Source: an uncultured Gammaproteobacteria bacterium
GTDB lineage: Bacteria; Patescibacteriota; Microgenomatia; JALYQM01
DNA: 64,000 nt
Reading direction: 5' to 3'
Assembly (NCBI GenBank): GCA_964403585.1
Contig: CAYOFQ010000001.1
Location: 1,408,826 to 1,472,825, forward strand
Part shown: one piece after another, positions 1,561 to 29,206 of the stretch
Position numbering within the stretch: the stretch's first letter is position 1
Layout: every line of letters begins with the position of its first letter
The notes under the pieces: model-generated
Told to the model about the DNA's origin: nothing
Seen by the model: the letters and a program-made list of their open reading frames with translations, nothing else
The model's database searches: none
Program-made: the position numbers and the translations under genes

Positions 1561-2241
1561 TCAGTGTCCACAATGTCCACCGCAACCACAACCTTCACCT
1601 TCACAAGCACAACCCTCTTCACCTTCATCACAGCCACAACCAACAGCCATTTCCCAATTTTTTTCTACAGCTTTCCAATCTAAATTCTTTAAGAAGGCAT
1701 CAACATATTTCGCCCGTGCCACACCATAGTCAATAAAATAAGCATGTTCATAAGTGTCTAAGGCTAAGATTGGCGTTGCATTCCAGACCGGAAAAGTATT
1801 TTGTGAATCACCTAAATAATTAAATAAATGCCCGAGGTCGTTATCCCAGGCCAACCAAACCCATCCCCTGGCGGCAATAGCCGTAGCCTTTAGATCCTGT
1901 TCCCATTTTTCGTAGGATCCGAAGCACTTGGTGATCATTTCCAAAAGTTCGCCCTCGGGTCGACCACCCTGTCCACCCAGATGACCAAAATAAATTTCGT
2001 GATTCTTAACACCACCAAGTGCGAAGGTTAGTTCAGCTTTGAGTACACGTAATTGCGAGTAAATCTGGTTAGCATTGGCATAGTCCTCGTCCGTAAGAGT
2101 CTCAATTTTATCCATGATCTCGTTATATTTTTTAACGTATCCTTGGTATAATTTGATGTGCTCTTCCTGAGTTTTGGCACTAATACCATCCATTTTCATC
2201 AGAGCATCACTAAAAGTTTTTGGTTCAAGCACAGTATGCAT
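1561..2241 (-). CDS. Fe/Mn-family superoxide dismutase with Cys/Gly/His-rich C-terminal extension
   Basis: Motifs GGVKNHEIYFGHL and DTYEHAYFIDYG (the DxWEHAYY metal-ligand motif). 226 aa ending in GCGCDEGEEGCACEGEGCGCGGHCGH. Confidence 0.8.
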   Translation of the reverse strand: MHTVLEPKTFSDALMKMDGISAKTQEEHIKLYQGYVKKYNEIMDKIETLTDEDYANANQIYSQLRVLKAELTFALGGVKNHEIYFGHLGGQGGRPEGELLEMITKCFGSYEKWEQDLKATAIAARGWVWLAWDNDLGHLFNYLGDSQNTFPVWNATPILALDTYEHAYFIDYGVARAKYVDAFLKNLDWKAVEKNWEMAVGCGCDEGEEGCACEGEGCGCGGHCGH

Positions 2242-3192: not shown

Positions 3193-4353
3193 TTACTTGG
3201 TACCGCAAGCCGTCTGGGTCGCGTCGGCTGCCGACTTATGAATATTCACAATCCCTAAGCTATTAATAACAGTCGTGTAAGGAACATTGAGATAGGTTAT
3301 CGAGGTTCCGTCAACACTGTTCAGATTGTAAATAATACCGCCGGGGCTTGCACAGGTACCGGAATGAATATGCGCCGGCTGTGCCGTATAGTTTCCACCA
3401 AAGAGGCTGAGTGAAACACGGGTCTGATTCGCGCTCATTTCAGTGATAACTGCGTAACCGCTCTGTCCTGAGTTACCTTGGGTCTGCAGATATACTGCAG
3501 TTTCTTGAGCACCTGGTCCTGGGGTTGTTGTTGGCTGTACGGTTGGATCTGGCGTATTAGTCGGTGTTGGACTTGGTGTACGGGATGGTGTTGGTGAAGG
3601 TGTTCGCGAAGGAGTTGGCGTTGGGCTATTCGTCGGAATAAATGTCCCGTCATTGTTACAATCTATTCCCGGAACACAGGTTGGCGCAACACTTGAAGTC
3701 GGATCTGAAGTAGGAAGTGTAATTAATTGTGGGATTACTACTACAATGTACATTGAAAGTGCTGTCGAATTATTATCACTGGCCGGTCCAAAATTGATAA
3801 CGCTCCCCGCCGAACGCTGTGCAAAGTATGCATCGTAAACACCAATTTTCGCATTGCTGGAATTTTTGCGCAACAAATAATGGTTAAGAGACTGAAGGTC
3901 TACCGGATGAGCAGCGGTATTACTGGTAAAATCATTATCCAACCAGGCCGGCACCGCTGTCGGAGCAATTCGTCGGCGATAAAACACATAAACATTTGCA
4001 TCGGCCTTCAAGGTAATTGACCAGTTTAAATTGCGGTCGTTCTTTGCGGCAACATTATCCGTCTGAATATAGGTAAAATCACGCGGCAGAATACCGTTAG
4101 CTACATCATGAAAAGTAAACCGGGGATCATTAGCATAAATTTGGGCATTCTGTTGAACGCACTGTTTTGAAAAAGTATGACCGGGGGCTTGTGTAGTAAT
4201 ATCGAAAGCAGTTCCATTACACCCTTGTTGGGCACTGCTTGAATCAGATCGTGATAGCTGAGAAAGATTTAAAGCTGGAATTTGTATACCGACAATCACA
4301 AGTACGGTAAAAACCAGCGCAAACAAAACAATAAGTACATGTTTTTTATCCAT
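3193..4353 (-). CDS. secreted/cell-surface protein with N-terminal signal anchor and Pro/Thr-rich linker
   Basis: N-terminal hydrophobic helix (VLIVLFALVFTVLVIVGI). PT-rich linker PTPTPSRTPSPTPSRTPSPTPTNTP. C-terminal Cys-containing domain (AHIHSGTCASPGG). Confidence 0.5.
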   Translation of the reverse strand: MDKKHVLIVLFALVFTVLVIVGIQIPALNLSQLSRSDSSSAQQGCNGTAFDITTQAPGHTFSKQCVQQNAQIYANDPRFTFHDVANGILPRDFTYIQTDNVAAKNDRNLNWSITLKADANVYVFYRRRIAPTAVPAWLDNDFTSNTAAHPVDLQSLNHYLLRKNSSNAKIGVYDAYFAQRSAGSVINFGPASDNNSTALSMYIVVVIPQLITLPTSDPTSSVAPTCVPGIDCNNDGTFIPTNSPTPTPSRTPSPTPSRTPSPTPTNTPDPTVQPTTTPGPGAQETAVYLQTQGNSGQSGYAVITEMSANQTRVSLSLFGGNYTAQPAHIHSGTCASPGGIIYNLNSVDGTSITYLNVPYTTVINSLGIVNIHKSAADATQTACGTK

Positions 4354-20947: not shown

Positions 20948-22759
20948 ATGGCCAATATAGTTAACTTATCATTTTACGCTGACCTCCAGCAGTCGATGTT
21001 GGATATCGACGACACCGAAGTGCTGGTTATAACTGCATTGAATCAAGTCTCTACCGAACTGTCTGTGATTAACCTCACTGCCAAATACCTGAGCGCGCTC
21101 TTTCTTGATGAAGAAAAGCAAATCGCCCTGATATATACAAAAAATGAGCACACCAGTGAGTATGAACAGGCAGATACCAAAACTAATGCGGAAGCCCGTG
21201 AGCTGTATGAAAAATTAAATAATATACTTAATTCAGAGAACACTGTTAGATCGGCCATCCAAAATAAGAAAATAGCCATTATACAGGACAAGGATACAAT
21301 TATCCCTTCCAATGTACCAAATCGAGATGAAACTCAAGCAATACTGGTATCACCCATATATATTGCCAAAGGATTTCGGGGGGTAATTATTTACGGGTTA
21401 GATAAACCGCCAATAGAACTGGACCAGAACCAGCTCCAGGTGGTAAAAATTATGTCCAACCTTATTGGTCAATCCTTCAGATTACAGGACTCCCAAACAT
21501 CCATTACCACTATTACCCAGGAACTATACAAAACCAATGCTCAGCTACACCAGCTGGATAAAATGAAAGATCAGCTCATCGCAGTAACCTCACACGAACT
21601 ACGTACCCCGGCAACTGTTGTCCAAAATTACTTATGGATGGTTTTATCCAAACCAGCAGCAGGAACAGTGCTTTCGGACAAAGATAACGAACGTTTGAAA
21701 AACTCCTTTACCGGCATCCAAAACCTTATCCACCTTATCAACGACATTCTCGATGTATCCAAGATCGAAAGTGGGAGCATCGAACTAAACGTGCAGCCGG
21801 TTAAGTACTCTGATGTGGTTTTTGAAATAGTACGGGATCTGATGCCAAAAGCTCAAGCAAAAAAAATCGCGCTTACCGTTACCAAAGAGGAAAAGCTTCC
21901 GGATGTAATTCAAACAGATAGCGTCAGATTAAAGGAAATTCTCGTTAACCTGATCAGTAATGGAGTCAAATTTACCGAAAAAGGCTCCGTGAACATTCAT
22001 ATATCGCAAAAAGACAACCAGCTTCAGTTTGCTATCAAAGATACCGGCCGCGGAATTGCCGCAGACTTCCTTCCCAATCTATTTAAAAAATTCCACCGCG
22101 AGGACACCGCCCTAACTGCCTCGAATCCCGAAACCGGTGGTACCGGACTCGGACTATACATCACTAAATCCATGACCGAAATTATGCAGGGGAAAATTTC
22201 AGTTGAATCGGTACACAACCAGGGATCAACCTTCACCATAACTCTTCCGGTCAATCCCAGTCTTGTTCAACCACAAAAGCCTGCCTCTGTTGCCACTCCT
22301 TTTATTCACGAGGGAGTCATTACCCGTTCAGATTATCTTCGATCGGTCGGACAATCCACTACCCCTCCTGCAAAATCTAAACCTCAGGATACCCGCAAAA
22401 AAATTCTCCTTATCGAAGATGACCAGGATATGCAGGATCTGTATGGAGATTATCTTTCAGATATCTATAACATCACCATTGCCCACAACGGCCAAGAGGG
22501 CCTCGAAAAAATGGAAAACGAGCAATATGATCTGGTTTTGCTGGACATTATGATGCCCAAAATGGACGGTGTAGAATTCCTGGAAAAGAAAAAAGGACAC
22601 GAGAAAAATTTTGGTGTACCGGTAGTGCTCCTCACTAACCTCGCAGCCGAAGAAGTCCTCAACAAATGCATACAATTGGGCGCCAAGTCGCTTATTATGA
22701 AGTCGGACATCACCCCGGATCAAATCCCACCGGTTATTAATCAGGTCTTACAATCTTAA
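20948..22759 (+). CDS. hybrid sensor histidine kinase (N-terminal sensory domain, HisKA, HATPase_c, C-terminal receiver)
   Basis: HisKA SHELRTP. HATPase N/G boxes (LISNGVKFT, DTGRGIA, GGTGLGLYI). C-terminal REC with ILLIEDD...DLVLLDIMMPKMDG. Confidence 0.85.
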   Translation: MANIVNLSFYADLQQSMLDIDDTEVLVITALNQVSTELSVINLTAKYLSALFLDEEKQIALIYTKNEHTSEYEQADTKTNAEARELYEKLNNILNSENTVRSAIQNKKIAIIQDKDTIIPSNVPNRDETQAILVSPIYIAKGFRGVIIYGLDKPPIELDQNQLQVVKIMSNLIGQSFRLQDSQTSITTITQELYKTNAQLHQLDKMKDQLIAVTSHELRTPATVVQNYLWMVLSKPAAGTVLSDKDNERLKNSFTGIQNLIHLINDILDVSKIESGSIELNVQPVKYSDVVFEIVRDLMPKAQAKKIALTVTKEEKLPDVIQTDSVRLKEILVNLISNGVKFTEKGSVNIHISQKDNQLQFAIKDTGRGIAADFLPNLFKKFHREDTALTASNPETGGTGLGLYITKSMTEIMQGKISVESVHNQGSTFTITLPVNPSLVQPQKPASVATPFIHEGVITRSDYLRSVGQSTTPPAKSKPQDTRKKILLIEDDQDMQDLYGDYLSDIYNITIAHNGQEGLEKMENEQYDLVLLDIMMPKMDGVEFLEKKKGHEKNFGVPVVLLTNLAAEEVLNKCIQLGAKSLIMKSDITPDQIPPVINQVLQS

Positions 22760-25536
22760 CTCTCTTGTGCCTTTTTAAGCGTAAACGTAAACGTACTTCC
22801 TTTACCCGGAGTTGAAGTAACTGAAACCGTTCCCCCCATAGCTTCAATATATTTTTTACAAATATACAAACCTAACCCGGTACCGGTTGTCTGCGCAACA
22901 GTCGCATACTGGTTATCCAAACGGCCAAATTTGGTAAACAACTTTGGCATATCTTCCGGGTTAATACCTTTACCGGTATCGGTTACCGACACAGACACAA
23001 AATCACCCTTATCTAACACCGTTGTTGTAATCGACCCCTGATCGGTAAATTTAAGCGAATTACCTATAAGATTAATAAGCACTTCGTGCACCTTATCCCC
23101 ATCGGCAAAGACCAGTACTTTATCCTCACTCTCAATACCTAATTTAATATTCTTCTCATCAGCCTTAATCTGCAATTCTTCGTTAACCGCTTTGATCAAA
23201 TCAACCAGCTCAAAATTCTTGTTCTCAATTTTAGTCCTTCCACCCTCAATCCGGGAAATAGTTAACATATCATTAACGAGATTAATTAAGCGCGATGTCG
23301 ACTGCGCCACCCGCTGCAGGTAATACCGCTGCTTCTCCTGCAAATCACCACCCTTACCGTTCAAAAGCATCCAAACATATCCATTAATAGCCGTCATCGG
23401 CGTTCTGAGCTCATGCGAAGCCACCGAAACGAACTCATCCTTCATCTTATCCAGCTCAATAAGCTTCTGGTTACTAACCTCAAGGGCCTCATTCGCCGTC
23501 TTCGCTTCTTCGTACAAATACGAGTTCTCTAATGCAATCCCTACCTCATCCATGAAGGCATCAAGCACATTCATTTCAGACGCCGGTACATCGTGCGGAG
23601 CTATATGCATAGCTAATGCCAAGGTCCCAAGAGGCTTATCCTTTGAAAACAAAGGATATACAATCATTCCCTTCATTCCGATTACTTGCTGTATTGTGTT
23701 TGATATTGGCCGTGGTAATCCAGGCGCCAATGCATCAGCAAGCGACGTCGTTGTAATTTTGCTACGCAAATCTAAAGCCTGCACCGCCATACTTCGCTTT
23801 TCATCAAGAGGAGTAGTAATATTTTCAAACGGACCTGGTAAGACAGAAAGTGCCCTTTTTATCGTAGGAGTCTGCGAAACTGCAGTTGGCACCAATACAC
23901 TTCTTTTAGAGTCTACTAAACTAATAATTGCGCCGTCATATCCTAACTCCCAAGAAATGGTATCTACTACTTTCTGACACATTTCCTTTAAGTCCAAAGT
24001 GGTGGTAATAATATTCTCCATGTGACGCAGAATTTCTAAGTTTTTATTTTTCTGCTTAAGCTCAAGGGTCGCTCTATCCACTTCAATTTTCAATCTCTCA
24101 CCAAAATCTCTTGAGTGCATAAAAATAAGAATATTTTCGATTCCAATTGCAGCTTGCAATGCAAATGTCTCAAGAACAGAAACATCCTCTCTAGTAAAAG
24201 CATCACCTGATTTTTTATCACCGATAATTATCGCTCCAATAACTTCATTCTTAATTTTTAAAGGTAGAACAATACTGACCTCATTTTCTAACATCCATTC
24301 AATTACTTGATTCTTATTATGGTCTTCTTTATCAATAACATCATCTTGTAAATCCTCTAACAGAACAGAACCACTACTGGTTTGTAATAAACTAGTTAGT
24401 ACTGACAACATAACCAGTTGTTTATTAGATTCTCCATAGTTATAAACTACAAATTCTTTACTCTGCGGAAATATTGTAGACAGATTATTTCTTCCTTGTA
24501 ATTTAACAGCAAAAGCCATATGCGAGATATGTAAGTTAGAATTAATAATTGTGTATACATTTTTTAATACCTCTTCAAAACCCAAAGTTGAATTTAAAGC
24601 GAGACTAAGCTCTCTTAACAAGTCAGACGGATTATAAACACTACTAAATAAATATTTATCAGTTGCTTTTCTTATATAATAAGCTAAAGAGTCATAAACT
24701 AAAGATAATAAGAAAGCTGCGAGAACAAAAATGTAAAGTAGAGTATAATCAAAATTATCACCTTTAAAACTGAAATATACAAAACCAGCAATCGAAAAAA
24801 TACCTATGATTGAAATTGTAATCAGAAGCTGAGCCAAGCCTCGCCTCAAAGCCAATCTGATATCTAGTAATCTATGTTTAATGATTGCGTATGATATTAA
24901 GGCAACAAAAATTAAAGAAAATGACGGACCTAAAGCTACAAAACCAGAAAACTGGAACAATACCACAGCGACAAAATTAGTCACAACTTGCAAAGCGAAA
25001 GTAAGTATTACTCCTATATATAAATATTTAAATTGAAGCTTAATTATTCCCTTTGCTTTTTTATATCTATGAATAGTTACCCAAATACCGTAAATCAACG
25101 AACCAAAAAATAAAACGACATAAAACAGTATTCCAAAATTTGGTTTAGGGCTAATGGTCGGAACTAATGTAACTCCTGAAAAGACTAATGGAGTCATCGC
25201 CATTAAAGCCACTGCAATAGTTGAAAAAATTAGCAAAACTACACTTCTTTTCCTAACAGAAATTTCGCTTCTTGGGAATGCTAAAAGCAACAATGCTACT
25301 GTTGGACCTAGTGGCGCTGTAGCAACCATAACCATTCTAATCCAAAATAAAGTTATTTCAGCAGAATTTGAGTTTAGTGAAAAATAATTAAAAATCGACC
25401 AAGAAGCAAAAATAATAGTTAGAATAGCTATTAATTTATGTGTAGTACTTCTAGAATTTTTTGAAAAAACTAATAAACCTAAAGATAAATTTATTAATGC
25501 AGTAAAAATGACTATTGCTAAAGTCAGAAAACTCAT
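22756..25536 (-). CDS. multi-TM sensor histidine kinase with GAF domain(s)
   Basis: 926 aa. N-terminal about 300 aa with 7+ TM helices, GAF-like middle, HisKA SHELRTPMTAI, HATPase (LIGNSLKFT, DTGKGI, GTGLGLYI). Stop codon overlaps the stop of the convergent HK (TTAA at 22756-22759). Confidence 0.85.
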   Translation of the reverse strand: MSFLTLAIVIFTALINLSLGLLVFSKNSRSTTHKLIAILTIIFASWSIFNYFSLNSNSAEITLFWIRMVMVATAPLGPTVALLLLAFPRSEISVRKRSVVLLIFSTIAVALMAMTPLVFSGVTLVPTISPKPNFGILFYVVLFFGSLIYGIWVTIHRYKKAKGIIKLQFKYLYIGVILTFALQVVTNFVAVVLFQFSGFVALGPSFSLIFVALISYAIIKHRLLDIRLALRRGLAQLLITISIIGIFSIAGFVYFSFKGDNFDYTLLYIFVLAAFLLSLVYDSLAYYIRKATDKYLFSSVYNPSDLLRELSLALNSTLGFEEVLKNVYTIINSNLHISHMAFAVKLQGRNNLSTIFPQSKEFVVYNYGESNKQLVMLSVLTSLLQTSSGSVLLEDLQDDVIDKEDHNKNQVIEWMLENEVSIVLPLKIKNEVIGAIIIGDKKSGDAFTREDVSVLETFALQAAIGIENILIFMHSRDFGERLKIEVDRATLELKQKNKNLEILRHMENIITTTLDLKEMCQKVVDTISWELGYDGAIISLVDSKRSVLVPTAVSQTPTIKRALSVLPGPFENITTPLDEKRSMAVQALDLRSKITTTSLADALAPGLPRPISNTIQQVIGMKGMIVYPLFSKDKPLGTLALAMHIAPHDVPASEMNVLDAFMDEVGIALENSYLYEEAKTANEALEVSNQKLIELDKMKDEFVSVASHELRTPMTAINGYVWMLLNGKGGDLQEKQRYYLQRVAQSTSRLINLVNDMLTISRIEGGRTKIENKNFELVDLIKAVNEELQIKADEKNIKLGIESEDKVLVFADGDKVHEVLINLIGNSLKFTDQGSITTTVLDKGDFVSVSVTDTGKGINPEDMPKLFTKFGRLDNQYATVAQTTGTGLGLYICKKYIEAMGGTVSVTSTPGKGSTFTFTLKKAQES

Positions 25537-25585: not shown

Positions 25586-26788
25586 TTATTTTCTTACAGA
25601 AGTTCTCAGATCTATCATTACTTCGTCTTTTATATCAGAGCCTTCAAGATATTCCATAATAGCCGCACCCACAATTGCGCTAGATAACCGAGCTGCAATA
25701 CCTGATTGTGGCCAAAAGTTATGCCCATCAGCTACCACAGCCCCAACCGCAGATTGAAAATCATGAGTCATAAAGTGACCTATCATCTTACCAGCAATAA
25801 TTGTTTTTATATTCTGCGGCAACTCTTTTCCTTGATAATACATTTCCTCAAGCATTACCATATCATCAGGAGTTAATCGCCCACCAAATAATGTACTTCC
25901 TGGAAAATGGATCTGGTTGGCACCTGCCAATGAGATGTCTGTACCCATAAAGACTGGTGAATTTGATTTTTCACGAATAATTCCTTTTAGATAGAGTTGA
26001 TCAATTTCCTCTAGTACAATTCCTTCTAAACCTACCCACTCTAAGACTTTATGTAGTGAAACAGTATCTGACGCATCCTCTAATCCAAGATTTTGAGAAT
26101 AAGCTTTATAGTTTCCATAAGGAAAAAAATCCAATGCTCTTTGCAAAAAATGAGTCGCATGATTCAATCCATAGGAATGTACGCCACTAGAGGGGAGTCG
26201 CTGTGTATCGTGAGGGGCTACAGTTCCCCCATCTATAACAGTAAGATTTTCAGCACCTAACCACATAAGCACTTCAGCAATTGAGAAACCGACACCCGCA
26301 CCAATAATCGCAATTTTAGTCGTCCTTAAACGTTCATAAGCATCTTTAGTAAAGATCCCTTTATTGCGAGAAAAAACAATTTCCCGCATTTGATCGTAAG
26401 GAAGAATTGAAACAAACCGTCCTTCATTCAACCAAGAAAACTCAGCAATAACACTAGAGTCCAAAAAACTTGAATCTGAAATTATTCTTCTCCGTATTTC
26501 ATCATCATTGTCTTTTCTCAATTTTGCATGATCTATAAGTTGTAATGGATATTCATCTACAAGGAACCTTAATTCTAAAGCACGAGCTAACATTTGAGGA
26601 ACATCGTTACCAATTCGCCATAACAAGAATCGCTGATTATCATGTCCTTGACCTAAAGCATGAGTACGCAATGAAGAAATGAACGCAGCCTTGCCTAGCT
26701 CATCTTCTAATTGGTATAAATTAACATGAGGAGATGACTCTGTGCTTACCTTTAACTCAGAATTAGTAATAAATAAATTCTCATGCAT
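25586..26788 (-). CDS. E1/ThiF/MoeB-like adenylyltransferase-fold protein with about 170-aa N-terminal extension
   Basis: KIAIIGAGVGFSIAEVLMWLGAENLTVIDGGTVAPHDTQR matches the E1-like Rossmann/nucleotide-binding signature (GxGxxG...LxLxDxDxVexsNLnRQ). No C-terminal CxxC pairs. The start is 1 nt after the upstream gene's stop. Confidence 0.6.
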   Translation of the reverse strand: MHENLFITNSELKVSTESSPHVNLYQLEDELGKAAFISSLRTHALGQGHDNQRFLLWRIGNDVPQMLARALELRFLVDEYPLQLIDHAKLRKDNDDEIRRRIISDSSFLDSSVIAEFSWLNEGRFVSILPYDQMREIVFSRNKGIFTKDAYERLRTTKIAIIGAGVGFSIAEVLMWLGAENLTVIDGGTVAPHDTQRLPSSGVHSYGLNHATHFLQRALDFFPYGNYKAYSQNLGLEDASDTVSLHKVLEWVGLEGIVLEEIDQLYLKGIIREKSNSPVFMGTDISLAGANQIHFPGSTLFGGRLTPDDMVMLEEMYYQGKELPQNIKTIIAGKMIGHFMTHDFQSAVGAVVADGHNFWPQSGIAARLSSAIVGAAIMEYLEGSDIKDEVMIDLRTSVRK

Positions 26789-26789
26789 A

Positions 26790-27704
26790 TTAAGCTGTTA
26801 CAAACTCATATAAACGAGGCGTATCTGTTCTGCCATATAAGTGAGGCAACCAATACTGCGAGAACTTCTTATAATAAGCATTAGCCATTACTGCTTCCTG
26901 AAGAATTTGCATCTCTTCTACTGACCCTACTCCTGCATATAATAAATTTAATGCATCAACATCTGTGGTCAAATCTACCCCTAACTCATAACCTGGAATT
27001 TGTTTGAGAGACATCGGTATCTCAACAACTTCAATGCCTCCTGCCTTTACATTTCTAACAACTCTTCTTGGCATTACAGCCGCAAACGACTCTACAGGCG
27101 GAAATTTATTCTTACTTATCTCAAAACCTAAACGTAGTAAGCTACCTGTAAGTAAACCAGGGATACCTTGCAACTTACGTATATCTTCTACTAAACAATA
27201 TCTACCTACTGTAGCAACAGTAGAGTAAGGTTTTCCTACTTCTTCATTAGGCCATTTAGCTGACACTAAATCCATTTCTGCAATAGGTGACATGCCTGGA
27301 ATTCCACTATCTGTACCAAACACAAATCTCATAGTTGAAGTAACAATACGTCCCTCTTGGTTTGGTAGGTTCGTTACTGCAGCTAATACTACAGATCTAC
27401 CCTCTACTTCATTTCCGTCCTTACAAAGCAACTGATAAACCTCAGCTTGTGAAAGACGATGCTCTGGGTTAGCTAAAGGAGCATAATTAGCAGCCACAGT
27501 CTGTAGTGTAGCCTCAAGCAATTCGGGATCAGTCGTAACGTCAAGATACTCAGTATTTTTGCCTACATACTCAGAAGTCAAGTTAGGTGCAATATTGTAT
27601 CTTATTTCAAGACTTTTTGTACGTCTAACGCTGGGAATTCCTGATTCTAGTAAGGGATTCCCTTCTTTAATAACAGTAGTAGCTCTCGTTTCTAAAACTG
27701 GCAT
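26790..27704 (-). CDS. uncharacterised 304-aa protein, translationally coupled partner of the E1-like gene
   Basis: No clear family. Weak nitroreductase/SagB-like hints only (SVRRTKS near the N-terminus, NLPNQ). AT-rich codon usage distinct from neighbours. Confidence 0.45.
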   Translation of the reverse strand: MPVLETRATTVIKEGNPLLESGIPSVRRTKSLEIRYNIAPNLTSEYVGKNTEYLDVTTDPELLEATLQTVAANYAPLANPEHRLSQAEVYQLLCKDGNEVEGRSVVLAAVTNLPNQEGRIVTSTMRFVFGTDSGIPGMSPIAEMDLVSAKWPNEEVGKPYSTVATVGRYCLVEDIRKLQGIPGLLTGSLLRLGFEISKNKFPPVESFAAVMPRRVVRNVKAGGIEVVEIPMSLKQIPGYELGVDLTTDVDALNLLYAGVGSVEEMQILQEAVMANAYYKKFSQYWLPHLYGRTDTPRLYEFVTA

Positions 27705-27708
27705 AAGA

Positions 27709-27745
27709 CAAAAAAAGCGCTACTCCACTAACTAGGAGTAGCGCT
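27709..27745 (-). terminator. intrinsic terminator/attenuator in the 5' leader of the E1-like operon
   Basis: Minus strand: agcgctactcc-tagttagt-ggagtagcgct followed by TTTTTTT, ending 5 nt before the ATG of the 304-aa gene. Confidence 0.5.
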
Positions 27746-27787
27746 TTAAACACCAAAATTCATAAGAATAATACTATAAGTTGTCAT
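27746..27787 (-). CDS. 13-codon leader ORF (MTTYSIILMNFGV) between promoter and attenuator
   Basis: ATG 8 nt after AGG. Stop TAA abuts the terminator hairpin. Could be a leader peptide or a short precursor peptide. No conservation data. Confidence 0.2.
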   Translation of the reverse strand: MTTYSIILMNFGV

Positions 27788-27796
27788 AAAAAAACC

Positions 27797-27851
27797 TAAA
27801 TGTGACATTTGGAGCGCAATTATAGCACATATATACCGCAATGTCAACACT
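27797..27851 (-). promoter_or_regulatory. consensus sigma70 promoter (TTGACA-N17-TATAAT) with 13-bp perfect palindromic operator AAATGTGACATTT at the transcription start
   Basis: Minus strand reads ttgacattgcggtatatatgtgctataattgcgctccaaatgtcacattt. Confidence 0.45.
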
Positions 27852-27887
27852 ATAAGACATATTAATTTTTCTTTCTATATTTAAAAA

Positions 27888-27921
27888 AATGCCTACTCTA
27901 TAGAGTAGGCATAAAATATCT
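27888..27921 (-). terminator. intrinsic terminator after the XRE-like gene / small TM ORF
   Basis: Minus strand: tgcctactcta-tagagtaggca followed by TTTTTTT. Confidence 0.45.
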
Positions 27922-28164
27922 AGCGATGGCTATAACCATCCCGCTTACATCACTAAGCCAAATAAGTTCAGTCAGATACACCATAAAATTTCTGTATAAT
28001 TCTAATATTATAAGATTCCTTAAGGCACAACACAAGTACGATAATCCCACTGTTATAAAAATAACATATATATTATAATAAATTATAACATTAATAACTG
28101 GTGTACTGCGATCATAATTGCAATCTATCTCTCCCTTTTTAAACAAATTCTTGTCCCAGGTCAT
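27898..28164 (-). CDS. small membrane protein (88 aa), overlaps the 3' end of the XRE-like gene
   Basis: Two predicted TM helices. Overlap of 26 nt with the upstream ORF. Very AT-rich. Confidence 0.3.
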   Translation of the reverse strand: MTWDKNLFKKGEIDCNYDRSTPVINVIIYYNIYVIFITVGLSYLCCALRNLIILELYRNFMVYLTELIWLSDVSGMVIAIARYFMPTL

Positions 28165-29206
28165 AATCCGTTAATATATATAATCCTGGATTTGCCTCCC
28201 AAATAGAAGTTAAATTAAGATAATCCCTATAAGCGACCGGATAAAGATATTGAGAATTTGGCATTGTATAGTATGGGATAGCATCCGGAACCTTCTTAAC
28301 ATTAATCTCGGCTTCTGCCAGCATGTCTAAAACAAATGAAAAAACTATAGCATAAATAATTCTTACTCTTCTTCTTCTAGCAATATTACATATAAAATTA
28401 AAACCTTTTCTACAAATAATTGAATTATATTGCCAAGCCCAATTAGGGATAACTAGTCTATCCAGCTCACCTATTTCGCTTATCGACAATTGTAAATGTT
28501 CGTGAGGCCAACCATATGGAAGATCCATAAGCTCCATAATACTTAGTGGGCTTCGAGTCTCTGAATTGCCTTGCAAAAAACGAATTGTTGTAGAAAGATA
28601 TTCTCTTCCTGTATTCGGGTCAGTTGTGACACCAATAATTTCATCAGAAAAGGAATTATTAGAATAGGGATCCTTTAATAATTCCTCAAAGTAGTGTTCA
28701 GGAGGTTTTTGCATTGAAGTGCTTGTTGCATAATAGCCAGCCTGGGCACAGTTAGCTTGAAAGGACCAAAAGTTTTTAATCTTTTCGTCGCTAATCTCAC
28801 GAAGGGTATAAAATTGAATATTTTCGGAAGTTATTAATGTATTATTAAATATTGAACTTGGCTCAATTAGTTGTGAGTATTTAGAATAAGGCGACAACAT
28901 TCTATTCGTATATCCCATCTCAAGTTTCTCTTCATCATTCAGCCCTCTTAAACCAAGTGAAAGCAGTATTTCATCAGCATTGTCTAACTCTGTTATAGCA
29001 CCATTATTAATGAATATCTTTATCAAAGCTAAAATTATTCTACGATCTTTTGGAACACGTTCTCCATTCTTCCATTTAGAAAATATACTATCCTCATAGA
29101 CAAAACCCTCTTCAGCTAAAGCCGACCCAAATTTCCCGTAAGTATCTAATCCTGCTTTAAGGCGATAATAATTAAATAACTCTCCAAAATTTTTATTCGT
29201 GTTCAT
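28139..29206 (-). CDS. XRE-family helix-turn-helix domain protein with about 290-aa uncharacterised C-terminal domain
   Basis: N-terminal FGELFNYYRLKAGL...FGSAL...SKWKNGERVP fits the HTH_XRE pattern. The remainder is unknown. Confidence 0.55.
   Translation of the reverse strand: MNTNKNFGELFNYYRLKAGLDTYGKFGSALAEEGFVYEDSIFSKWKNGERVPKDRRIILALIKIFINNGAITELDNADEILLSLGLRGLNDEEKLEMGYTNRMLSPYSKYSQLIEPSSIFNNTLITSENIQFYTLREISDEKIKNFWSFQANCAQAGYYATSTSMQKPPEHYFEELLKDPYSNNSFSDEIIGVTTDPNTGREYLSTTIRFLQGNSETRSPLSIMELMDLPYGWPHEHLQLSISEIGELDRLVIPNWAWQYNSIICRKGFNFICNIARRRRVRIIYAIVFSFVLDMLAEAEINVKKVPDAIPYYTMPNSQYLYPVAYRDYLNLTSIWEANPGLYILTDYDLGQEFV

Follow-up and report, generated by a model that had tools for sequence, protein, structure and literature searches.

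A conserved leader resembling a read-through switch precedes signal-synthesis and sensor-kinase operons in uncultured bacteria

We have studied a short leader region lying between positions 27710 and 27856 of a 64,000-nucleotide stretch of contig CAYOFQ010000001.1, from an uncultured bacterium; this whole 64 kb stretch is called the window below. The leader is read on the minus strand, as are its promoter, boxes and terminator and the operon genes behind it, and all their coordinates are given on that basis. It consists of a consensus promoter, two copies of an identical 8-mer that bracket the promoter, a 13-codon open reading frame (ORF) containing the second of these copies, and an intrinsic terminator that ends directly before the first gene of an operon. 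The operon encodes a GNAT-fold protein, a ThiF-like enzyme and a sensor histidine kinase. From its sequence, the leader looks like a read-through switch for operons that combine signal synthesis with a sensor kinase. The explanation that we favor is a lineage-specific leader of the attenuator type, in which a putative sequence-specific factor acts at the duplicated box. To this composite model, built on sequence comparison, we would give an even chance of being correct. Attenuation by a leader peptide had been suggested in an earlier note on this DNA, and the idea is now supported by 10 other instances in which the same succession of promoter, ORF, terminator and ATG is found, with the stop codon of the ORF adjoining or entering the terminator.

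The promoter is of the sigma-70 type with an extended -10 element (TTGACA-17-TGcTATAAT, 27819..27847, minus strand). The -35 hexamer TTGACA occupies 27847-27842 and the -10 hexamer TATAAT 27824-27819, separated by a spacer of 17 nt, and the TG of the extended element is at 27827-27826. The two hexamers match the consensus at 12 of 12 positions. This is the sole site with a full match across the 64 kb window, and one other site scores 11/12; the earlier description of a textbook promoter was thus correct. That description had overlooked a duplicated 8-mer. One base away from the -35 hexamer, on its upstream side, lies the sequence CTTATAGT (box 1, 27849..27856, minus strand), and a second copy (box 2, 27773..27780, minus strand) is found 76 nt downstream of the first, inside the leader ORF. 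No other occurrence of CTTATAGT is present in the window. A search of the literature for the 8-mer returned only primers and similar sequences.

Related loci were reached by three routes: homologues of the GNAT protein, orthologues of the kinase, and a scan of metagenome contigs with a DNA pattern of two boxes. Together these gave 10 further instances of the leader in contigs from uncultured bacteria (L001, L012, L013, L004, L016, L005, L014, L008 and two copies in L010). With the window, the 11 instances can be aligned in a fixed register, comprising box 1, the -35 hexamer, the spacer, the -10 hexamer with or without TG, the motif TCCAAA, box 2, the stop codon of the ORF, and a GC-rich hairpin followed by a T-run. 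The instances span at least four lineages, and the identity between adjacent proteins falls as low as 36%; the GNAT protein of L001 is 72% identical. One more contig, L002 (source run SRR16481187), is identical to the locus of the window. The scan of metagenome contigs with the two-box pattern gave five matches, of which L006, L007 and L009 were chance or unrelated, and the same pattern gave no match in a scan of viral contigs. No further copies were found by nhmmer with a profile of the module, either in the window or in the collected loci. A protein-pattern scan for the GNAT gave nothing among metagenome contigs, and among genomes returned only the L001 contig. Of the related records, one genome carries the label Gammaproteobacteria, and a distant homologue of the kinase that of Patescibacteria.

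The elements of the promoter are retained in every instance. The -35 hexamer is TTGAC(A/T), and the -10 hexamer is TATAAT, TATTAT or TACTAT, variously preceded by TG. Ten of the 11 instances have a spacer of 17 nt, and L013 has one of 15 nt. The box is more strictly conserved: CTTATAGT is identical in 22 of 22 copies, with box 1 in the same position relative to the promoter in all 11 instances, and the distance between the boxes is 76 nt in 10 of the 11 and 74 nt in L013. The L013 copy (3506-3652) owes its 74-nt box distance to its 15-nt promoter spacer, and it is possibly weakened or in decay. At the predicted start region the window carries the motif TCCAAA (27808..27813, minus strand), and TCC(A/T)AA or a close variant occurs there in 11 of 11 instances of the fixed-register alignment. 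In box 2 the codons (A)CT-TAT-AGT encode T-Y-S in the window, and (T/S)-Y-S is encoded in all 11 instances, with no synonymous variation in these codons. Since the codons do not vary synonymously, and the same eight nucleotides recur in DNA that is not transcribed, the box is conserved as nucleic acid and not as peptide.

The leader ORF of the window begins at an ATG at 27787 and ends with a TAA at 27748-27746 (27746..27787, minus strand). It encodes the peptide MTTYSIILMNFGV, in agreement with the 13-codon ORF that had been read there. In all 11 instances the frame of box 2 contains an in-frame ATG, giving ORFs of between 13 and 29 codons. The first stop codon of this frame falls in the range from 8 nt before the start of the terminator stem to 10 nt within the stem, again in 11 of 11 instances; in the window it is 1 nt ahead of the stem. 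The other two frames of the leader are interrupted by earlier stops. When the variable segments were shuffled, the probability per instance ranged from 0.07 to 0.42 for the placement of the stop and from 0.06 to 0.19 for the presence of the ATG. Multiplied together for four lineages, each with one representative, these probabilities give 6e-7, which should be read as a rough null.

The peptide sequences themselves are variable. Those of 13 amino acids are MTTYSIILMNFGV, MKTYSIFLIYFLF, MKTYSIYLIIFEN and MKTYSIFLYILLN; the others are MKTYSMWFSLILEKRGGIRA and MKTYSILFSLNVYKRGGIRA, MKKTDISYSYLSIVSVNELQGSRVRRCAA and MTKTDISYSYLSVLSVRSICIKR, and MNIHILEKTYSYFIFIINA, MNYKIFCKTYSNLLVLSIAN and MNLDIFYETYSILLNLKRL. 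Over the 11 instances the C-terminal residues are V, F, N, N, A, A, A, R, A, N and L, valine being that of the window. Outside the box, substitutions in the leader ORF are overwhelmingly nonsynonymous, and yet the length of the ORF or the position of its stop is kept. A frame that stays open and a stop that stays in place while the sequence varies are characteristic of a regulatory leader ORF. The earlier note had called for an alignment of homologous leaders to examine the conservation of the peptide and of a palindrome near the start site. The architecture of the short ORF is indeed kept, but neither the peptide beyond the box nor the palindrome is conserved.

Two further features of the reading frames may be recorded here. 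The leader of the window contains an extra in-frame ATG at 27808 (27806-27808). In 8 of the 11 leaders, including L001, L004, L005, L008, L010 and L014, there is an additional ATG in the frame of box 2, located 10-19 nt past the -10 hexamer, and in some lineages the leader ORF might begin close to the 5′ terminus of the RNA. A different ORF of 28-30 codons overlaps the promoter, extending from box 1 to a TAG in box 2. It is uninterrupted in the window, L001, L004 and L005, but was rejected as a candidate because it is broken in L008 and in copy 2 of L010.

The ORF is followed by an intrinsic terminator (27710..27747, minus strand), with a stem of 13 pairs (core GCGCTACTCC/GGAGTAGCGC), a loop of 8 nt and a run of seven T residues. 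The core stem extends from 27744 to 27717, and 13 pairs are formed when the A/T extension is counted (27747-27714); the T-run occupies 27716-27710. The hairpin alone has a calculated stability of -19.2 kcal/mol. In the related loci the terminator hairpin is preserved by compensatory changes in 6 of 11 pairs. The T-run ends 5 nt before the ATG of the gene for the 304-amino acid GNAT protein, as had been noted earlier, and the corresponding distance is 0-9 nt in the nine instances with cassette genes behind them. No -10-like hexamer is present before the ATG of this gene. With so short a gap and no such hexamer, it follows from the sequence itself that the structural genes can be expressed only through read-through of the terminator.

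We found no conserved antiterminator helix. In leaders folded after truncation before the 3′ arm of the terminator, the 5′ arm had no consistent pairing. The lack of a conserved antiterminator suggests that termination is likely to be the default.

The gene for the 304-amino acid protein also lacks a Shine-Dalgarno (SD) sequence of its own. This observation of the earlier note is true, but it is uninformative as the basis of an inference, because the genome is largely devoid of SD sequences: an SD-like motif precedes 9 of the 44 long ORFs of the window and is missing from the other 35. A TATAAT-like hexamer is located 6-9 nt before the ATG in about a third of the long ORFs of the window, an arrangement expected of leaderless transcripts, which suggests widespread use of leaderless mRNAs by this organism. 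A search of the literature found no paper that joined Patescibacteria with leaderless mRNAs or with SD usage.

The mechanism that we envisage is as follows. The near-consensus promoter, which appears to be constitutive, would generate, from a start site predicted near 27811-27809, a transcript of ∼100 nt that by default ends at the intrinsic terminator (27716-27710) ahead of the first gene, with read-through RNA as the minor species. A ribosome translating the leader ORF as far as its stop codon would sit over the 5′ arm of the terminator hairpin, so that termination would be prevented and RNA polymerase would continue into the operon. The same ribosome might then reinitiate at the nearby ATG of the first gene, which has no SD sequence. 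Conversely, a block or stall in the translation of the leader ORF would lead to termination. Ribosome-dependent read-through of this kind, as in pyrBI, would have no need of an antiterminator helix. However, the presence of an invariant duplicated box at fixed spacing requires something beyond the action of the ribosome, and a sequence-specific factor is the likeliest addition. In the simplest reading of the invariant 8-mer, the switch would be set by a putative factor that recognizes CTTATAGT. Such a factor might act on the DNA, by looping or as a roadblock at sites near -41 and +36, on the RNA, or on both.

In the pyrBI operon of Escherichia coli the leader ORF runs up to or into the intrinsic terminator, and attenuation proceeds with no antiterminator helix. 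The present leader shares with pyrBI a stop codon beside or inside a strong terminator directly before the first structural gene, the lack of an antiterminator, and a peptide whose sequence seems unimportant. It differs in having no obvious logic of pausing in response to nucleotides, in the invariant 8-mer, which is present upstream of the -35 hexamer as well as in the ORF, in serving several unrelated cassettes, and in belonging to an organism that is largely without SD sequences. Of the features that characterize ribosome-mediated attenuators, we find an ORF before the terminator, and an ORF end so placed that a ribosome there would overlap the 5′ arm of the terminator. Clustered regulatory codons are absent, there being just single codons for threonine or serine, for tyrosine and for serine, and there are no mutually exclusive antiterminator and terminator helices, which fits the pyrBI subtype only. 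The order of promoter, short ORF, terminator and biosynthetic genes is also that of trpL, hisL and pheL, but unlike those leaders it has no run of regulatory codons and no alternative 1:2, 2:3 and 3:4 pairing.

A number of observations weigh against the attenuator model. The transcription start site, termination and translation are all deduced from sequence. In several instances no SD-like sequence precedes the ATG of the leader ORF, nor does that ATG coincide with the 5′ terminus predicted for the RNA, so that initiation on the ORF is a prediction. Moreover, the box is a nucleic acid signal that is not explained by the ribosome alone, given the invariance of the T-Y-S codons and the presence of the 8-mer beside the -35 hexamer, and the fixed spacing of 76 nt points to a constraint at the level of DNA. 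The statistics are limited, as the 11 instances correspond to perhaps four or five independent lineages. Lastly, the shuffled nulls take no account of local composition, such as an A-rich tract before the terminators.

In a second explanation, control is exerted purely at the level of DNA. A regulator bound at the two CTTATAGT boxes (about -41 and +36) would repress or activate the promoter through looping or as a roadblock, and the ORF would have arisen incidentally from the box and from A/T-rich sequence. The invariance of the 8-mer, its untranscribed copy included, the fixed register of the boxes despite variable intervening sequence, the lack of synonymous change in the box codons, and the confinement of the box to these two sites in the window all agree with such a scheme. 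There is a parallel in the gal OE/OI and lac O1/O3 operators, where pairs of operators flank the promoter and repression involves DNA looping. Here too, two identical sites bracket a promoter at a fixed distance. In contrast to the gal and lac operators, however, the sites are 8-bp direct repeats 76 bp apart, one of them lies inside an ORF that appears to be translated, and the regulator is putative. Control at the DNA level does not account for the retention, in 11 of 11 instances, of an in-frame ATG and of a stop beside the terminator, or for the strong terminator that is always found immediately before the first gene. Nor is any candidate DNA-binding protein conserved beside the module, and with a promoter already close to consensus there seems little need for activation. 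We consider this explanation to be a real possibility, although on balance an unlikely one. The attenuator model, control at the DNA level and a functional peptide are not mutually exclusive.

The genes that follow the leader are not the same in each locus. GNAT and ThiF genes make up the cassette in the window, L001 and L004, and a GNAT gene is also present in L005. The cassette of L014 encodes an unrelated protein of 298 amino acids together with a protein of the histidine-decarboxylase family, and that of L016 encodes proteins of 91 and 409 amino acids. A methyltransferase-like gene follows in L012 and L013. Copy 2 of L010 precedes genes for a FabD-like acyltransferase and methyltransferases, and copy 1 of L010 and the L008 leader precede genes for small proteins. 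On every contig of sufficient length, the cassette is followed by an orthologous histidine kinase with seven-transmembrane (7TM) and GAF domains. Leaders that are nearly identical can precede quite different cassettes, as seen on comparing L004 with L016, and L005 with L014. Both the leaders and their peptides cluster by lineage and not by the enzymes encoded downstream. This is incompatible with the ORF encoding a substrate for those enzymes.

In a third explanation, the product of the short ORF is itself functional. It could be a signalling or membrane peptide, or a substrate of the downstream enzymes as the precursor of a ribosomally synthesized and post-translationally modified peptide, with the terminator setting a high ratio of peptide to enzyme transcripts. 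A consensus promoter followed by a terminator would indeed give an abundant short transcript, the ORF is open in every instance, the peptides vary towards their C-termini, and a sensor kinase with multiple transmembrane segments stands at the end of the locus, as in loci of peptide quorum sensing. But one and the same type of leader precedes GNAT plus ThiF, the 91- plus 409-amino acid proteins, the 298-amino acid protein plus histidine decarboxylase, and methyltransferases, while the peptide tracks lineage. Furthermore, the conserved residues are conserved as nucleotides only, the same nucleotides being duplicated at the promoter, and the operon contains no exporter or protease. A functional peptide is in our judgment improbable.

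Microcin C and lantibiotic loci are arranged in the manner of that third explanation. In the microcin C operon mccA is followed by a hairpin and then mccB, and the earlier note had likened the present locus to it. The two have in common a tiny ORF, a hairpin, and enzyme genes that include a member of the ThiF/E1 superfamily. The likeness is not supported on closer inspection. The window peptide ends in valine and not in asparagine (a discrepancy that the note had itself pointed out), and the gene directly after the hairpin is not the E1-like one, as the note had supposed, but that of the GNAT. The ThiF-like protein is encoded by the second gene; it matches the Rv1355c family and not MccB, which is absent from its sequence matches in the PDB (E ≤ 10). 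Cassettes that lack a ThiF enzyme also have this leader, unrelated cassettes can follow leaders that are almost identical, and the peptide does not covary with the enzymes. The clustering of the leaders by lineage is incompatible with the analogy.

The enzymes of the window have an alternative precedent that does not involve a ribosomal peptide. The first gene (26790..27704, minus strand) encodes the 304-amino acid GNAT-fold protein, of the LuxI/FeeM type and so similar to synthases of N-acyl amino acids or acyl-homoserine lactones (AHLs). It has no direct match in Pfam or NCBIfam. An exhaustive HMMER search found a family of 36 representatives, of which three match PF21926 (FeeM, N-acyl amino acid synthase) and two carry a fused ThiF domain. 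The AlphaFold2 model has a predicted local distance difference test (pLDDT) score of 89.5, and its best Foldseek matches in the PDB are the AHL synthases BjaI, LasI and TofI, together with other GNATs. The second gene (25586..26788, minus strand) encodes a ThiF/E1-like adenylating enzyme of 400 amino acids (PF00899, E = 1.5e-10; best NCBIfam match, the Rv1355c family). Its ATG is 1 nt past the stop codon of the first gene (TAA-T-ATG, 26786-26792), suggesting that translation of the two genes is coupled. AlphaFold2 run on the single sequence gave a pLDDT of 34.6 for this protein, with no usable model for the N-terminal 140 residues, and a word-index search with it returned only itself.

An acyltransferase resembling FeeM and a ThiF-type ATP-dependent enzyme act on free N-acyl amino acids in acyl-oxazolone biosynthesis, in the systems OxzAB and TyzABC (PMC10404671). 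The present pair resembles OxzA/OxzB and TyzA/TyzB/TyzC in combining an N-acyl amino acid synthase of FeeM/LuxI-like type with a ThiF-type enzyme, and the acyltransferase has BjaI as its nearest solved structure here as in that study (PMC10404671). The precedent provides an enzymological rationale with no ribosomal peptide as substrate, and this counts further against a functional product of the leader ORF. There are also differences. A domain search found no nitroreductase-type desaturase in the 400-amino acid protein or elsewhere in the operon, and the pair is encoded in a single operon with a sensor kinase.

That kinase is encoded by the third gene (22756..25536, minus strand), a protein of 926 amino acids with the organization 7TM-GAF-GAF-HisKA-HATPase. 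In the related loci this gene is conserved at the distal end of the operon. The 3′ end of the gene overlaps by 4 nt (22756-22759) the 3′ end of a convergent gene for a hybrid kinase (20948-22759, plus strand). Orthologues of the kinase are associated with a range of cassettes: GNAT plus ThiF, FabD-like acyltransferase or methyltransferase, the 298-amino acid protein plus histidine decarboxylase, the 91- plus 409-amino acid proteins, and aromatic lyase plus ThiF. The kinase gene of the window, L001, L012, L013 and the P0044 locus has on its flank the convergent hybrid kinase-receiver gene and genes for proteins of 92 and 268 amino acids. The leader module stands ahead of the cassette in every such kinase locus for which DNA was examined, and the layout as a whole resembles that of a polymorphic signal-synthase/sensor locus. 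In L010 (3908-4470, minus strand) two complete modules are present in tandem, the first before a gene for a protein of 64 amino acids and the second with no terminator in front of it.

Taken at its most ambitious, the module may be the control element of a previously undescribed type of signalling locus. A swappable cassette for synthesis of a small molecule would lie between the conserved leader and the 7TM-GAF kinase, and a putative factor would read CTTATAGT twice, as DNA next to the -35 hexamer and again inside the leader ORF, thus coupling control of the promoter to ribosome-dependent read-through, possibly in an autoinduction loop. We put this forward tentatively, as a proposal that is rather unlikely to hold. 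An arrangement of promoter, leader ORF and terminator is classical; the version with a pair of invariant 8-mers flanking a consensus promoter at 76 nt and with swappable cassettes that end in one kinase is, as far as our searches could tell, undescribed in Rfam and in the literature. If the attenuator model holds, the succession of box, consensus promoter, box in a leader ORF and terminator would form a compact and recognizable regulatory cassette. It would mark loci, in bacteria that are uncultured and poorly known, that wire different small-molecule biosynthetic cassettes to the same sensor kinase, giving a handle for finding such loci and defining the regulon, and it would be a test case for attenuation in an organism largely without SD sequences. 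The duplication of the 8-mer at a fixed spacing points to a putative regulator.

A discrete unit of promoter and terminator that recurs in several loci might also be expected of a small RNA acting in trans or of a ligand-binding riboswitch. We regard this as very unlikely for the ∼100-nt transcript. The unit always stands directly before genes, conservation of the RNA extends to no more than ∼15 nt, and the terminator is the sole conserved structure. At the gathering threshold, Rfam 15 gave no match in the window or in eight related loci; at E ≤ 5 there were only chance matches below that threshold.

The palindrome proposed in the earlier note as an operator is real, but this role for it is not supported. 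The sequence AAATGTCACATTT (27798..27810, minus strand; 27810-27798 as read) forms a perfect 13-bp palindrome of the form 6-N1-6, just downstream of the -10 hexamer and so near +1. It was thought to bind an XRE protein encoded by the adjacent gene, and a gene for a 355-amino acid protein (28139-29206, minus strand) does lie directly upstream of the leader on the same strand. That the two form an operator and its regulator is scarcely credible, because AAATGTCACATTT is kept in none of the 10 related instances of the fixed-register alignment, the closest relative included, perfect 6-N1-6 palindromes occur 22 times in the window, which is the frequency expected by chance, and the 355-amino acid protein has no match to a helix-turn-helix family of Pfam at E ≤ 1, no sequence match in the PDB, and no gene in L001, L004, L005, L012, L013, L014 or L016. 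The sole conserved part of the supposed operator region is the TCCAAA motif. The equivalent position in L001 has CCAAAC-aatg-GTTTGG, and elsewhere there are other inverted repeats or none. As RNA, the palindrome folds weakly (-1.9 kcal/mol). Hairpins are predicted at the 5′ end of the leader in other instances, and a conserved 5′ stem-loop was considered as a defining feature of the module. This was rejected since such hairpins are strong in just 4 of 11 instances; that of the window is weak, and in L013 and copy 1 of L010 there is none.

The 355-amino acid protein has weak similarity in its C-terminal half to the 304-amino acid GNAT protein (BLASTP E = 5e-5, motif RF..G...P....MDL...WP). Its gene, together with neighbours at 29.9-31 kb, is missing from the otherwise syntenic L001.

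A second conserved unit is located just upstream of the module, at 27882-28036 (minus strand) in the window, 9640-9815 in L001, 3255-3411 in L012, 3320-3480 in L013 and 1717-1860 (minus strand) in L008. It comprises a promoter TTGTGT-17-TATAAT, ∼120 nt containing a GGGATGG motif, and a conserved terminator CCTACTC-N4-GAGTAGG with a T-run. In the window this terminator is GCCTACTC-tata-GAGTAGGC followed by a T-run (27882..27912, minus strand); it insulates the module, and its sequence is conserved in several of the relatives. This second unit might represent a small RNA, a small ORF or a paralogue of the module that has degenerated, and the 88-amino acid ORF listed at 27898-28164 is probably spurious. 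The upstream unit of the window contains a degenerate box, ATGGTTATAGCC, at 27939-27928. In L004 (5732) and L016 (about 3228) the upstream unit carries an intact third copy of CTTATAGT, within a mini-ORF that reads M/V-A-Y-S-D/N-stop.

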